Position numbers and translations under genes: made by a program. Source: Escherichia phage phita32. Taken from it: 64,000 bases of DNA. The stretch lies in sequence record PQ758395, one strand, 5' to 3'. Positions 18,930-33,020 of this stretch are shown here, piece after piece (position 1 is the first letter of the stretch; the number at the start of each line of letters is the position of its first letter). Under the pieces are notes generated by a model that was not told the origin of the DNA, did not search any database, and was given only the letters and a program-made list of their open reading frames with translations.

Positions 18930-19500
18930 TCAGGTTGCCAGAGATCAGGAGGATTTCTAAAATGGATTTCCTCCTTTTGATATTTTACCTACCAGGATAT
19001 TTTAAAATCCTTAGAAAATCAGAAAATGGATCGAAAACTAAAATGGATTTTTCAGAGCAGGCACGACGAGATGAACCACTCATCCTATCGTTTGCACCAT
19101 ATTCCAGACCACCATTACAGATTTCCCGCACATGCTCACATCCTTCTCCTAGAACTTCCCCCACTTACCCTTGACCTTTTATGGTAATGATATAACCACT
19201 ATCTTGAAGTTGCGGTGCAGCTTTCCAAGTACTCGATCTGTTTTTCGTTTCAAAGATTGAATTTTCTGAAAATTTTTCTCGATAAATTTCTCAGTACTCG
19301 ATCTGTTTTTCGTTTTCTGAATCGGATTTTCTGGAAATCGTTCCGGCTCTCGACCTGAAATTTTTGGGGACGAAATCGATTTTTCGTTTTCAGAAATGGA
19401 TTTTTAAAATTTCTATATGGGAATATTTTAGTGGATACTATTTTATAGGAAATTGTTACGGAGGGTAATTAGCGTGCTAATTAAATTTATTAAATGCGAG
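18930..19500. repeat. ORF-poor region with short direct-repeat families
   Basis: AAATGGAT(T/C) four times (about 18961, 19024, 19040, 19405); TACTCGATCTGTTTTTCGTTT twice (19221, 19293); TTTTCGTTTTC variants. Confidence 0.4.
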
Positions 19501-19518
19501 GAGTTCTAATTTAGAATT

Positions 19519-19537
19519 TTGAATGATAATCATTCTC
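19519..19537. promoter_or_regulatory. Fur-box-like site 1
   Basis: ttgAATGATAATCATTcTC matches 15 of 19 positions of the Fur consensus GATAATGATAATCATTATC. Confidence 0.3.
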
Positions 19538-19552
19538 GTTTGCAGAATAACG

Positions 19553-19575
19553 GGCAGGCCCGGTGATTGTCTCCC
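19553..19575 (+). repeat. GC-rich 23-bp element GGCAGGCCCGGTGATTGTCTCCC (left copy)
   Basis: Recurs degenerate at 19696-19712 and as an exact inverted copy at 29118-29140. Confidence 0.45.
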
Positions 19576-19655
19576 GGCCCCTGTTGCCCCGGCTTGTTAT
19601 TATAGTATCACGCAGGACAAAGAAAGCAAGGATTTTTTGCATAAATTTTTAGACG

Positions 19656-19674
19656 ATAATGATAACCGTTCTCA
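19656..19674. promoter_or_regulatory. Fur-box-like site 2
   Basis: GATAATGATAAcCgTTcTC matches 16 of 19 positions of the Fur consensus. Confidence 0.3.
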
Positions 19675-20059
19675 TTCTATCTAGCGCCCATCCCCAGTGA
19701 TTGTCTCCCCCGTCACCAGGGCCTGCCGTCCTTTCGATAGGTATATTGTGCCACCTGGCGGGGCCGCTGTCAACACCTTTCAAAAAAAAAAAATTATAAC
19801 CAGGTGCGCCCACTGCCAGGACCTGGCGGGGCCAACCTGGCAGGTCCGCGCTATAAAGTGAACAGCTACAGAAGAGGTACAAAAATGAAAGGTAATGCTA
19901 CTCACCTGGAAAATAGTAATTGATGATACGGAAGCTATCGCCCTGGTCGAGAAGGCTAAAACTGAAGCACCGGAACATAAAGAAGAGTACGAAAAACGGT
20001 GGTGATCTGGCAGGGCGGCGGCAGGTGGATTCTATCATAAAAATAATTTAAAATAATTG

Positions 20060-20088
20060 TTGACAACCGGGGGAGTCCTGCTATTCTT
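20060..20088 (+). promoter_or_regulatory. sigma70-like promoter (TTGACA-17-TATTCT)
   Basis: -35 TTGACA 20060-20065; weaker -10. Confidence 0.4.
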
Positions 20089-20138
20089 ATCCTACAAGGT
20101 GAACAACACCGCACTAACTAGTAAAGAGGATAAAAATC

Positions 20139-29030: not shown

Positions 29031-29117
29031 ATAAAAAGTGTTTTGGTACTGATTTTGGGGTTGACTTGTTCGGCCCCTTTTGCTATTCTTATTAAACGGG
29101 CGGCACTTGGGAACAGG

Positions 29118-29140
29118 GGGAGACAATCACCGGGCCTGCC
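29118..29140 (-). repeat. GC-rich 23-bp element (inverted right copy)
   Basis: Plus strand GGGAGACAATCACCGGGCCTGCC is the reverse complement of 19553-19575. Confidence 0.45.
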
Positions 29141-29165
29141 TGTCATATAAGAACTATAAAAACCT

Positions 29166-29983: not shown

Positions 29984-30403
29984 ATGAATATTAAATCTAA
30001 CAATCCCGCATACAGCTTTGATAACGCTTTTTGTCACGGCCCAGCCGCAAAAGGTTTTGAAATTGATGGTAAACTGGTTATTGTGAATGTTGACGGGGAA
30101 GAGGTTGCAGTATATCCGGTGGCAGACGTTAAAAGCCGTTTACAATGCCGCATTGATGTTACCGCATATCAGCTTGATCCGGTCCGCGTAGTTGCCCTGG
30201 TCCTGGAGGAAGAAATCAAAGCGATGCACCATAGTAACAGGTTTATTGGTGACGCGCAGGATAATATGAAGGTGTGCCGTTATAAAGTTAATGAAGTGCT
30301 TAAAGAATATGGATTTAAGGATCTGATGATCAAACGTGATGAAAAATTTCGTTATCGTAACGACCTGGCAAATCGAATCTATGAAATATACGAATCATTA
30401 TAA
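29984..30403 (+). CDS. hypothetical protein
   Basis: ORF with AAGAGGTAAA SD; last gene of the rightward array. Confidence 0.5.
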   Translation: MNIKSNNPAYSFDNAFCHGPAAKGFEIDGKLVIVNVDGEEVAVYPVADVKSRLQCRIDVTAYQLDPVRVVALVLEEEIKAMHHSNRFIGDAQDNMKVCRYKVNEVLKEYGFKDLMIKRDEKFRYRNDLANRIYEIYESL

Positions 30404-30421
30404 TTTTTTAACTGAATTATC

Positions 30422-30449: not shown

Positions 30450-33020
30450 CTCCTCTTTTCCTACCACAAACGGCCAAGCCTGGCAAGTGGAATAATTGAC
30501 TAGCCAGCAATTACCAACACTGTACAAACATACATGTAAAATAGCTATTGCATAATATTTCATTGTGTGGTAGCAGGGCCATTTTTACCCGCTTTTCCTT
30601 CCAAAACTGCATGTAATTCCACTATTGCACAAAATTTAACCTGATGCACAATATCTCTTTCTTGTCAACAACTAAAAATCTTTATAAGTCATACACTTAC
30701 ATAACCACAAAAGCGTGTTCTACGTGAAAAATCGGGTATAACTATAGCCACTAAATTCCAGAATTCACGTAGCGTCACCATTCTATAGCCCGCTAAGTAT
30801 TTATTCCGACCATAGAATAACGGAATAGTCAATACCTGCATAAAATAATTATTCGTGTAAACTGCATAACATAAATCAGCTAGGGTGTCAACATTTTTCG
30901 TAAACAGCTTGAAATTATCACGGTGAGTTATCATAAGCAGATAAATCTTTAGTCGTCTAATGTTTACTGTACGTTACTATACTAACTGAAATCATTAGAT
31001 GACTAAGAGAAAGATAAGAAATCATTAACAATGCAATTGTTTTATTCGTAACAATAAGGCAACTATGCAAACGAATGGCATGGCGCGACGGAGTCGCGAC
31101 ATAATATAAAAGCAGTAACCATCACCCCCGTGATAGTTTGTCTGCAAACTATTAATCAGATCATAGTTGCCTTGTATTTAGTTAATCATGACATAAACTC
31201 AGGCATAGCCTTCGTCTCGAGGATGTTAACAAGCAAGGCAACTATAGATCTGCTAATAGTTGCCCTGCTTTTATATTATGTCATAGAAACACCCGAAGGG
31301 GTGACCAAAGGTCACCTGGCATAGCCAGTGAAAGATTATTAACTTGCTAATTGTCAACTTGTTGGCTGTTAGCTTGTCAATTGTAAACTAGTTAATTGTT
31401 ATCATGCAAACGAATGGCATGGCTTATCATCTATGCGTGAACTATCCAGGCGTAAACAGTCTATGTGGGAACAATCTATACGTGAACAGTGAAACATGAA
31501 ATAATAACAGTCGTTATTGTGGCGTATTGTGCTGCAGTATGTCATATTGTGTCAGACAAGTTTTTCTCCTCTTTGTCAAGTGCTGCATGAAAAATTTACA
31601 ATCTTGTATGGTAGCATTTTGCGGCCCTGTTTACATTCAGGAATGTATGTATAATCCTTGTTGTGTGGGCGTTTAGACGTCTGGACGGTCAGAAGTCTGC
31701 AGGTTAATATCTAATCTATTGGCTGCTAACTATATCCCCCACAAATAATAAGAAATATAATTGTTATATGTGTAAACCGTAACTCATGTTATCAATCCCT
31801 GTATGTATCGCCAGTGGTGCGCATAATGGGTATTATGTTAAATTGCCCGTAATGATAACTATTCTCACAATGATAGGTATTCTCATTCACCCCACAAGAT
31901 AGGTTGCAAATGTTGTGCCACTGTGTGAACGGCCTCACCTATTAATTTGCCTCACTGCCTCGATATTTGAGAATTATTATAAGAATGAAAAGTATTCCCA
32001 TTTCGTCCGCCTGGCAGCACTCCAGTCGCTACCGGCTCCTGACAGGGAAGCACTCCTGTAGGACAAGCACAAAATCGTGGTATAACTGGACCTGTTCAGA
32101 TATTTCTGGCTGGCTCTTCAGGTCTGTGTGGGAAAAGTCAACCTCTCTGGCGGGGCAGGGGATCATGACGGGAAAATTGCAGGTCAATTAAAAAATTTAC
32201 GTGGTGTATGAAGCGCTCTTCAGGTAAGGCATGTATTATGGGATGAAACCCTCTTCAGGCAATGATATTTGTGGGTGTGATATTTGCTGGAAAGCCAGAT
32301 ATGACGGGACTCCCGTCGGGGCAGGGGTAGTACAGACAGGGAAAATATGGGGATGTAGTTGGGGAAATTGATCAGACAGGTAGAGTATGGAATATGTTAC
32401 AAGTATGTTAACTATGGAGGGTGAATATCTGTAGGATTTGTGTGTAAAATCAAAGACTTAAGTGGTGTTGTGGTATTTTCTATAAATAATTCAAGTTTAA
32501 TAGGTAATATTTGTCTCTATCCGCTTTGTGTGGTAAACAGATTCAGATGAGATTGGTTTACAAGTGTATACATAATATACAAATTAAAGATACAAGAAAC
32601 CCCCCTCCCCCTTCAGCTACCATTCACCTTTTCCTCTGACTGGTACTTAAACACTTATTCAGACTCTTCAGGTTATCACCCATATATCATATGGCAGTGA
32701 CTGGTGTCCTCCGGCCCCTCTTTCGTCACCCGTCCGCTTCGCCATGCTAATGCCATAGCCAAATGTTCGGTTGTTCACCCTGTTCACTCAGGTGTATCTC
32801 CATACCCCTTCAAACCGAAGAGAACAGAAAACCCGAATTACTCGGTAAAAGAAAAGAGAAGAACTTAATTTTATCAGGATAGGCAAGAATGTCAAGGCAT
32901 GACTGCTCACTAAACAAGCAAACAGTCATGTGTGGTAGGTAAGTGATTGTGGTGGTAGGAAATTTAGTTGAAAGATGTGTTATAGGTGCTTCCAGCACTT
33001 TAGCCGGGCAACTAATTGTG
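30450..33020. other. 2.6-kb ORF-free, repeat-dense region between convergent gene blocks (candidate origin/regulatory or ncRNA locus)
   Basis: No ORF of 60 aa or more except one weak hit; repeat families GGCAACTAT/ATAGTTGCC (x4, 31050-31280), CTATRYGTGRAAC direct repeats (31431-31490), CAAACGAATGGCATGGC (x2), CTCTTCAGG (x4-5), GGGGCAGGGG (x2). Confidence 0.5.

Follow-up and report, generated by a model that had tools for sequence, protein, structure and literature searches.

Candidate operators for host Fur in the conserved non-coding control region of rV5-like bacteriophages

Two sites in a 64,000-nucleotide stretch of Escherichia phage phita32 (sequence record PQ758395; the whole stretch is called the window below) resemble operators of Fur, the iron-dependent regulator of the bacterial host, and the locus raises the question of whether host Fur recognizes them and, if so, which transcription they would control. 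The window belongs to an rV5-like virulent myophage (Vequintavirus), and both sites lie in a gap of ~1.15 kb (18960-20138) that is poor in open reading frames (ORFs) and lies within a long row of small genes that run rightward, each from a sigma-70 promoter of its own. Our analyses strongly support the assignment of the sites as operators for host Fur. That host Fur-Fe gates non-coding transcription at these boxes is a proposal in which we place about as much confidence as doubt.

We compared the sites with the 19-bp Fur consensus GATAATGATAATCATTATC. Site 1 (ttgAATGATAATCATTcTC) matches at 15/19 positions and occupies 19519-19537, exactly as an earlier reading of the window (the sequence-only reading) had reported. 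Site 2 (GATAATGATAAcCgTTcTC) has the 16/19 match given there, but lies at 19655-19673, one base to the left of the 19656-19674 assigned to it. Each box had also been placed about 20-35 bp upstream of a recurring element, and the two copies of this element (GGTGATTGTCTCC, starting at 19562, and AGTGATTGTCTCC, starting at 19696) begin 22-24 bp after their respective boxes. Both pairs of box and element belong to one 134-136-bp tandem duplication (repeat families D5 and D6). When the window was randomized 300 times with a first-order Markov model, sites numbered on average 0.32 at a threshold of at least 15/19 and 0.023 at a threshold of at least 16/19. Verified operators of E. coli K-12 (fepA-fes, fepD-entS, fepB-entC, fhuA, ryhB, fecI, fecA, and cirA) match the same consensus at 12-16/19 positions, and the two phage sites sit at the top of this range.

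Besides the consensus count, we employed position weight matrices (PWMs), in both directions. The E. coli-only matrix is a palindromic 21-mer (AAATGATAATCATTATCATTT) obtained de novo by expectation-maximization from eight Fur-regulated intergenic regions only; in the 64-kb window its first- and second-ranking matches are 19521-19541 (box 1, 24.3 bits) and 19657-19677 (box 2, 22.1 bits). Its own training operators score 12.6-24.0 bits, so that this weight-matrix scoring, a check suggested with the sequence-only reading, puts the two sites within or above the range of verified operators. Applied to 25 phage boxes, the same matrix returned 6.7-27.8 bits, with 22/25 at 16.5 bits or more. The reciprocal, phage-only matrix was built from 25 boxes of 11 phage loci (consensus GAATGAGAATCATTCTCATTT) and run over 250 kb of K-12 DNA (five 50-kb pieces). 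Nine of its top 12 matches are fecI, ryhB, fhuA, cirA, fecA, fepA-fes, entC, fepB, and fepD-entS, all of them Fur sites confirmed by footprinting or gel shift (Chen et al. 2007, PMC2189734). A leave-out matrix, trained on other genera only, assigned 25.0 and 24.2 bits to the two window sites versus 6-22 bits for nine K-12 operators, and found six matches of at least 12 bits in the window versus 0.36 expected. The phage motif is equivalent to that of verified Fur operators. The phage-derived matrix also scores two further K-12 intergenic sites highly, map-rpsB (AATTGAGAATCATTCTGAATT; 189580) and yeiS-preT (TATTGAGAATAATTATTACTT; 2233860), both unconfirmed as known Fur sites.

The half-sites fit a TGA(T/G)AAT inverted repeat, with position 4 being T or G independently in each half. 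Position +/-4 is non-complementary in 13/25 boxes (T/G on the left and C/A on the right, independently of each other), and alternative Watson-Crick pair types do not occur; such mismatches without pair switching are the pattern that a protein site would show and, with zero covariation, rule out RNA or DNA hairpins as their explanation. The surrounding region is AT-rich and repeat-rich and the boxes are palindromic, as one would expect if the sites had arisen by chance in AT-rich intergenic DNA or formed hairpins that have no protein partner. This reading is effectively refuted, and we give it next to no credence, given the numbers expected per window (0.023 sites at 16/19 or better; 0.36 PWM matches versus the six observed), the conservation across genera described below, and the mismatches at +/-4.

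A sensitive blastn search with 19400-19900 returned 249 records. Outside the genus, the conserved part is 19519-19577 (box 1 plus the element), at 80-88% identity in phages of Klebsiella, Salmonella, Serratia, Pectobacterium, Erwinia, and Enterobacter; box 1 itself retains 80-88% identity in distant genera, and the same segment is conserved in phAPEC8-like phages, which belong to another subfamily. When 19 distinct related loci from the Vequintavirinae and Stephanstirmvirinae were scanned with the E. coli-only matrix at a threshold of at least 12 bits, 18 contained between one and five boxes. The centre-to-centre spacing of adjacent boxes is exactly 29 bp in 18/27 cases, the remainder being 38, 24, 23, 17, and, in one case, 277 bp. 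The single box-less locus (L148) lacks the element too and keeps the downstream block, which argues that these are separable modules. Among close relatives, Gotham and naam conserve box 2, which in relatives reads as overlapping GATAAT hexamers, and they preserve a third, degenerate box (box 0) better than the window does (version ...GTTCTCATTT). This pattern of sequence conservation indicates that the box array and its position are under selection. A blastn search of 19486-19612 against 5,426 E. coli genomes gave zero matches, and an IMG/VR scan for the 16-mer AATGATAATCATTCTC gave mostly unrelated chance matches, with L071 and L125 as the only useful loci.

Which protein would bind these boxes? 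A tblastn search of 50,697 phage records with E. coli Fur found zero matches in Vequintavirinae; the query was judged sound from its 99.3% match to a Salmonella fragment. This null result among the Vequintavirinae records speaks against a phage-encoded Fur, and the binder would therefore be host Fur. Alternatively, the palindromes could be bound by a phage-encoded or other non-Fur protein, such as a replication initiator or an early regulator, that shares the specificity of Fur within an origin architecture with iterons. The boxes do adjoin iteron-like repeats, their strict 29-bp spacing is unlike that of host Fur clusters, and the neighbouring phage proteins are uncharacterized and without a Pfam family. 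However, the motif coincides with that of Fur over all 21 positions in both directions of the test, no Fur homologue was found in these phages, and a motif that stays constant across phages of eight host genera fits a conserved host factor better, so that we see only a slim chance for a non-Fur binder. The claim of the sequence-only reading that the sites are Fur-type operators is, on the forward and reciprocal motif tests and the cross-genus conservation, strongly supported.

The element beside the boxes bears on the second question, that of the transcript concerned. The GGTGATTGTCTCCC element noted earlier is the core of a conserved 30-nt sequence that reads GGAGACAAWCACCGGnnCTGCCCGCTATT on the other strand, and the window contains exactly three copies of this core (c1, c2, and c3; Table 1). 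In the GGAGACAATCACC (GGAGAC) orientation, a sigma-70 promoter (TTGnnn, 16-19 nt, TAnnnT) is found 25-40 nt upstream of 18/18 element copies from 12 phages and two genomic loci. The spacers of these promoters are unrelated in sequence between lineages, and conservation confined to the hexamers is the signature of real promoters. Because all 18 copies have this opposite-strand promoter, the element at 19.5 kb is most likely the 5' leader of leftward transcripts, which would place the boxes downstream of their promoters. The sequence-only reading had put each box upstream of the element and suggested control of an sRNA or of the first genes of the array. Given the same 18 promoters, a layout in which the boxes precede those genes, or a rightward RNA beginning with the element, is not the best-supported arrangement.

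Two leftward promoters can be assigned in the gap. P2(-) has an equivalent (TTGnnn-N16-19-TAnnnT) in every relative, and in its frame box 1 spans ~+51 to +71 and box 0 +80 to +100. For P1(-), to which a homologous strong minus-strand promoter corresponds in all genera, box 2 spans ~+61 to +81. In Certrevirus the second locus, to which the c3 copy of the window corresponds, has the same succession of promoter, leader, and, ~45 nt further on, a Fur-like box. The third core, c3, carries the exact 13-mer on the opposite strand, for which we estimate a chance probability of ~0.002. Its promoter and core are conserved across genera, and in phage anhysbys c3 lies ~10 kb from c1, as in the window. The c3 core (plus strand GGGAGACAATCACCGGGCCTGCC) is located 8-30 nt downstream of its strong promoter, the spacer of which can also be read as a terminator-like hairpin with a T-run, and c1 and c3 face outward around a block of small early genes.

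Table 1. Positions of the boxes, leader cores, promoters, and repeats in the window (PWM, position weight matrix).
Feature	Position	Strand	Basis and remarks
Box 0, degenerate Fur-like box AAATGCGAGGAGTTCTAATTT	19492-19512		Centre 29 bp left of box 1; 11.8 bits, other-genera PWM
Box 1, putative Fur operator GAATGATAATCATTCTCGTTT	19521-19541		15/19; 25.0 bits, other-genera PWM; 24.3 bits, E. coli-only PWM
Box 2, putative Fur operator TAATGATAACCGTTCTCATTC	19657-19677		16/19; 24.2 bits, other-genera PWM; 22.1 bits, E. coli-only PWM
Leader core c1 (minus strand GGGAGACAATCACCGGGCCTGCCCGTTATT)	19546-19575	-	46.5 bits, core PWM from other phages; conserved across genera
Leader core c2, degenerate duplicate, in the Vequintavirus loci examined	19680-19709	-	23.5 bits; within the 134-136 bp duplication D5
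Leader core c3 (GGGAGACAATCACCGGGCCTGCCTGTCATA)	29118-29147	+	Exact 13-mer on opposite strand; 41.3 bits; inverted relative to c1/c2, 9.6 kb away
P2(-), TTGCTT (19629-19624), 19-nt spacer, TATAAT (19604-19599)	19599-19629	-	Read from sequence; inferred start ~19592
P1(-), TTGACA-N17-CACAAT, upstream TG, preceded by 12-nt A/T tract (19782-19793)	19745-19773	-	Promoter scan, 10/12
Promoter of c3, TTGACT-N17-TATTCT	29061-29089	+	Promoter and core conserved across genera
Candidate weak rightward sigma-70 promoter, TTGAAT (19519-19524)-N18-CAGAAT (19543-19548), box 1 filling the spacer	19519-19548	+	8/12, read from sequence; hexamers kept in most, though not all, relatives
Three iteron-like direct repeats, 65-74 bp period (GTACTCGATCTGTTTTTCGTTT...GGATTTT)	19219-19404		Repeat family D1; faced by the leftward promoters
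Two overlapping Fur-like boxes, 18 bp apart	31850-31888		12.8 and 15.9 bits, other-genera PWM; 18.5 and 15.8 bits, E. coli-only PWM
Fur-like box in the predicted terminal repeat, ~10 bp from its inner boundary	31983-32003		16.6 bits, other-genera PWM; 16.7 bits, E. coli-only PWM

The order of promoter, leader, boxes, and repeats is kept across genera, as is its position. The repeats that the leftward promoters face have equivalents at the same place in other genera (GGTCTCGATCG...TTTTTCAAAATCG...GAAAAAATTTTT) and are a putative replication origin or protein-binding array. Neither an initiator protein nor a DnaA box was identified for this candidate origin. The repeats of the other genera consist of GGTCTCGATCG cores with GATC sites and GAAAAAATTTTT tracts, and four copies of TTTCTnAAATGGATTT also lie near the repeats of the window (18954-19050).

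On these grounds, we propose that boxes 0, 1, and 2 form an array of host-Fur operators in a non-coding control region shared by rV5-like and phAPEC8-like phages. Read along the minus strand, each unit would comprise a sigma-70 promoter, a ~50-nt leader, one or more Fur boxes, and the iteron-like array, and the window would hold two such modules in tandem, P1(-)/c2/box 2 and P2(-)/c1/box 1/box 0. With iron present, Fur-Fe2+ dimers on boxes at ~+50 to +100 would stop the leftward RNA polymerase so that only the short leader is made, and Fur on box 1 would in addition occlude a weak convergent rightward promoter. With iron absent, Fur would leave the boxes and transcription would enter the repeats at the putative origin, so that crossing of the repeats would depend on iron. 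Fur occupancy, the roadblock, its iron dependence, and the role of the repeats are all steps that we infer.

Several points weigh against this proposal. To our knowledge, Fur has not been documented as a roadblock at +50 to +100, and classical Fur operators overlap the -35/-10 region of the promoter that they control. The P2(-) spacer, at 19 nt, is suboptimal, and for the proposed RNAs neither a terminator nor a defined 3' end was found. In E. coli Fur clusters, sites overlap one another at offsets of 3 or 6 bp (Chen et al. 2007, PMC2189734). The 29-bp spacing of the main array departs from the 6-bp phasing of those clusters; the picture is mixed, with two of the terminal-repeat boxes 18 bp apart and overlapping hexamers in box 2 of relatives. 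A search of the accessible literature on this phage group found no binding or expression data. Finally, the boxes in the predicted terminal repeat (Table 1) have no adjacent leader and therefore fit general recruitment or titration of Fur better than a single switch acting in cis.

The main rival is a refined form of the layout in the sequence-only reading, which we consider unlikely. Here, box 1 would be the operator of a rightward promoter (start ~19555) that fires only under iron starvation and acts through an antisense RNA or through interference between convergent promoters, its start lying ~36 nt from that of P2(-). The RNA would begin with the GGUGAUUGUCUCC stem-loop, antisense to the leftward leader, and its loop would be complementary to the c3 leader; the match of this loop to the 13-mer at 29119-29131 is exact. 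A box within the spacer between -35 and -10 is the classical geometry of Fur repression, the promoter-proximal box is the one mainly preceded by TTG, and most c1 loci keep (C/T)AGAAT to a degree that the Fur motif would not demand by itself, the rightward -10 being TAGAAT in one of them (L141). However, this promoter reaches only 8/12, below the threshold of the promoter scan, and its essential A at -11 is T in Klebsiella phages and G in phiTE. Equivalent hexamers are absent from box 2 and from the box of the Certrevirus second locus, the conservation of ATTTGCAGAAT (ATTTGC-AGAAT) could reflect an extended F-F-x-R-R array of Fur hexamers, and each of the three cores in the window has a stronger promoter on the opposite strand.

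The boxes of the terminal repeat bear on a further explanation. By homology, the segment from 31555 to ~32013 matches the 459-bp repeat_region with which the linear Gotham record ends; it probably holds the physical genome ends as a direct terminal repeat, and the boxes at 31850, 31868, and 31983 lie inside it. If the Gotham annotation reflects physical ends, these boxes would occur twice in each virion DNA. The boxes could form a sponge: present on hundreds of replicating genomes, they would titrate Fur and derepress host iron uptake for the benefit of phage iron enzymes such as ribonucleotide reductase, with no local role in cis. Multicopy Fur boxes derepress the Fur regulon, which is the principle of the Fur titration assay, and the window contains at least six or seven near-consensus operators with scores equal to or above those of the best host operators. 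Copy number varies from one to five, and extra boxes are found in the terminal repeat and in the Certrevirus second locus, always in non-coding DNA. On the other hand, Fur is abundant in E. coli, at thousands of molecules per cell, and titration would therefore be partial; a sponge also leaves unexplained the fixed distance of 12-13 nt to the leader, the 29-bp spacing, and the constant place of the boxes between promoter and repeats. We judge a pure sponge improbable. One isolated Fur-like box at 30386-30406 (ATATACGAATCATTATAATTT; 13.6 and 16.5 bits), located at the stop codon of the ORF 29984-30403, could be due to chance.

Returning to the leftward leader, its core is conserved as sequence rather than as structure: RNAalifold found no common structure in 19 leader copies, and the stems of c1 and c3 differ. 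In Rfam scans, neither this region of the window nor ten related loci had a match better than E=0.29. In a representative collection of bacterial genomes, the leader core had nine matches in unrelated phyla, close to the chance estimate (~9), and is therefore not a host element. Other identities for the locus were tried and rejected. An intrinsic terminator is annotated over the element in phiTE and Murica, but there is no T-run after the stem on either strand and the terminator scan is silent. A Fur-regulated small RNA of the RyhB type finds no match in Rfam, lacks a terminator, and has an uncertain overlap with a promoter. With phiTE in mind, the loop was also compared with ToxI and pseudo-ToxI by blastn-short, which gave nothing meaningful.

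The wider neighbourhood of the boxes was surveyed as well. The 1.5 kb around the Fur-like sites matched 121 phage records at 89-93% identity, nearly all of them rV5-like Escherichia phages. Pfam searches with ten flanking ORFs yielded zero families, and on this basis no iron-related gene lies nearby; a scan for tRNA and tmRNA genes detected none. At 19886-20005, a 12-codon ORF (ATG at 19886) overlaps a 36-codon ORF (19895-20005) in a different frame, where relatives annotate a single gene of ~80 codons (naam_109); the split could be a frameshift or a real difference. About 16-22 GenBank records bear the name "Campylobacter phage", with C. jejuni as host; in the queried regions they share 90-95% identity with the E. 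coli rV5-like phages, and they are probably mislabelled or contaminant assemblies.

Two other non-coding segments were noted. In most genera (L127, ~1640-1760; L003, L004, L005, L126, L128-L131, and L148), the two minus-strand promoters flank a nearly invariant block of ~120 nt (CTACCGGCGATCCACCTTCC...GGTAYGTTAGCCCCGCCTTTWCGCCGTGGGGTGGCG). It contains at least one covarying stem (GACCTGG/CCCGGTAC versus AACCAGG/CCTGGTAT), has no Rfam match, and is a candidate for a novel phage small RNA. In Vequintavirus the block is missing and the second copy of leader and box stands in its place, whereas L148 keeps the block without the Fur module. The second segment, 30500-33000, comprises ~2.5 kb of non-coding DNA of low GC content between the convergent gene blocks; other repeats are dense there, among them GCAAACGAATGGCATGG, which occurs twice, and several ...CTCTTCAGG... 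units. Judged from its position, it is probably what the rV5 genome paper draws as a "non-coding" box.

Taken together, the boxes appear to be a canonical host operator in an unprecedented setting, namely the conserved core non-coding DNA of lytic phages, both beside a putative origin and within the terminal repeat. It is probable that the phages sense the iron signal of the host or soak it up. We suggest only tentatively that Vequintavirinae and Stephanstirmvirinae have recruited host Fur as a structural or regulatory component of their core non-coding control DNA, so that either non-coding transcription and the initiation of replication would be iron-gated or replicating phage DNA would be a Fur sponge that derepresses the host iron regulon. 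If this is true, either the development of the phage or the iron physiology of its host cell would depend on iron status. Iron is scarce in the gut and in infected tissue, where broad-host-range rV5-like and phAPEC8-like phages are developed as therapeutics. Our literature search for Fur boxes in virulent phages or myoviruses, and for transcriptomes of this group, found nothing relevant. If the proposal is true, lytic coliphages would here have a global metal regulator acting in their core control region, the first such case that we could find in searchable literature. The analysis also marks out a module of promoter, leader, Fur array, and iterons, with a candidate origin, in this phage group.

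Among known systems, the leader recalls lambda nut boxA/boxB, HK022 put, and the boxB-boxA of rrn leaders in being an element of ~50 nt just downstream of early sigma-70 promoters and in occupying two loci per genome. By our own comparison, the phage leader ends in CGCTATTC, a 6/8 match to boxA CGCTCTTA (boxA consensus CGCTCTTTA/TGCTCTTTAACAA), a likeness that we offer as a lead only. Unlike the nut, put, and rrn leaders, c1 and c2 point at non-coding repeats, and the phage leader has no consensus stem (RNAalifold), no Rfam match, and no identified N-like protein.

The boxes themselves share with chromosomal E. coli Fur operators, whether these are described by the 19-bp GATAATGATAATCATTATC, as 7-1-7, or by the M9 model (Chen et al. 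2007, PMC2189734), the same 21-bp palindrome, AAATGAkAATnATTmTCATTT. They score as high or higher, are likewise clustered, and the two motifs recover each other's sites. They differ in residing in the non-coding DNA of a virulent phage, in having no iron gene nearby, in their 29-bp spacing, and in that, for most of them, the best-supported promoters are located upstream and the boxes do not cover -35/-10.

Host Fur operators on phage DNA have precedents in temperate phages. Stx1 prophages have an iron-regulated stx1 promoter. In lambdoid temperate coliphages, a Fur box stands upstream of the sitABCD cargo operon (PMC6969025). In these cases the box drives one cargo or virulence operon from a prophage, whereas the boxes described here belong to the core control region of strictly lytic phages from two subfamilies. 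Lytic cyanophages use the pho-boxes of host PhoB upstream of phage pstS and phoA, and NtcA sites as well. The principle would be the same, that of a virulent phage using a nutrient-sensing transcription factor of its host; the cyanophage sites control auxiliary metabolic genes, whereas the Fur boxes accompany a non-coding leader and repeats, and both the regulator and the hosts differ.

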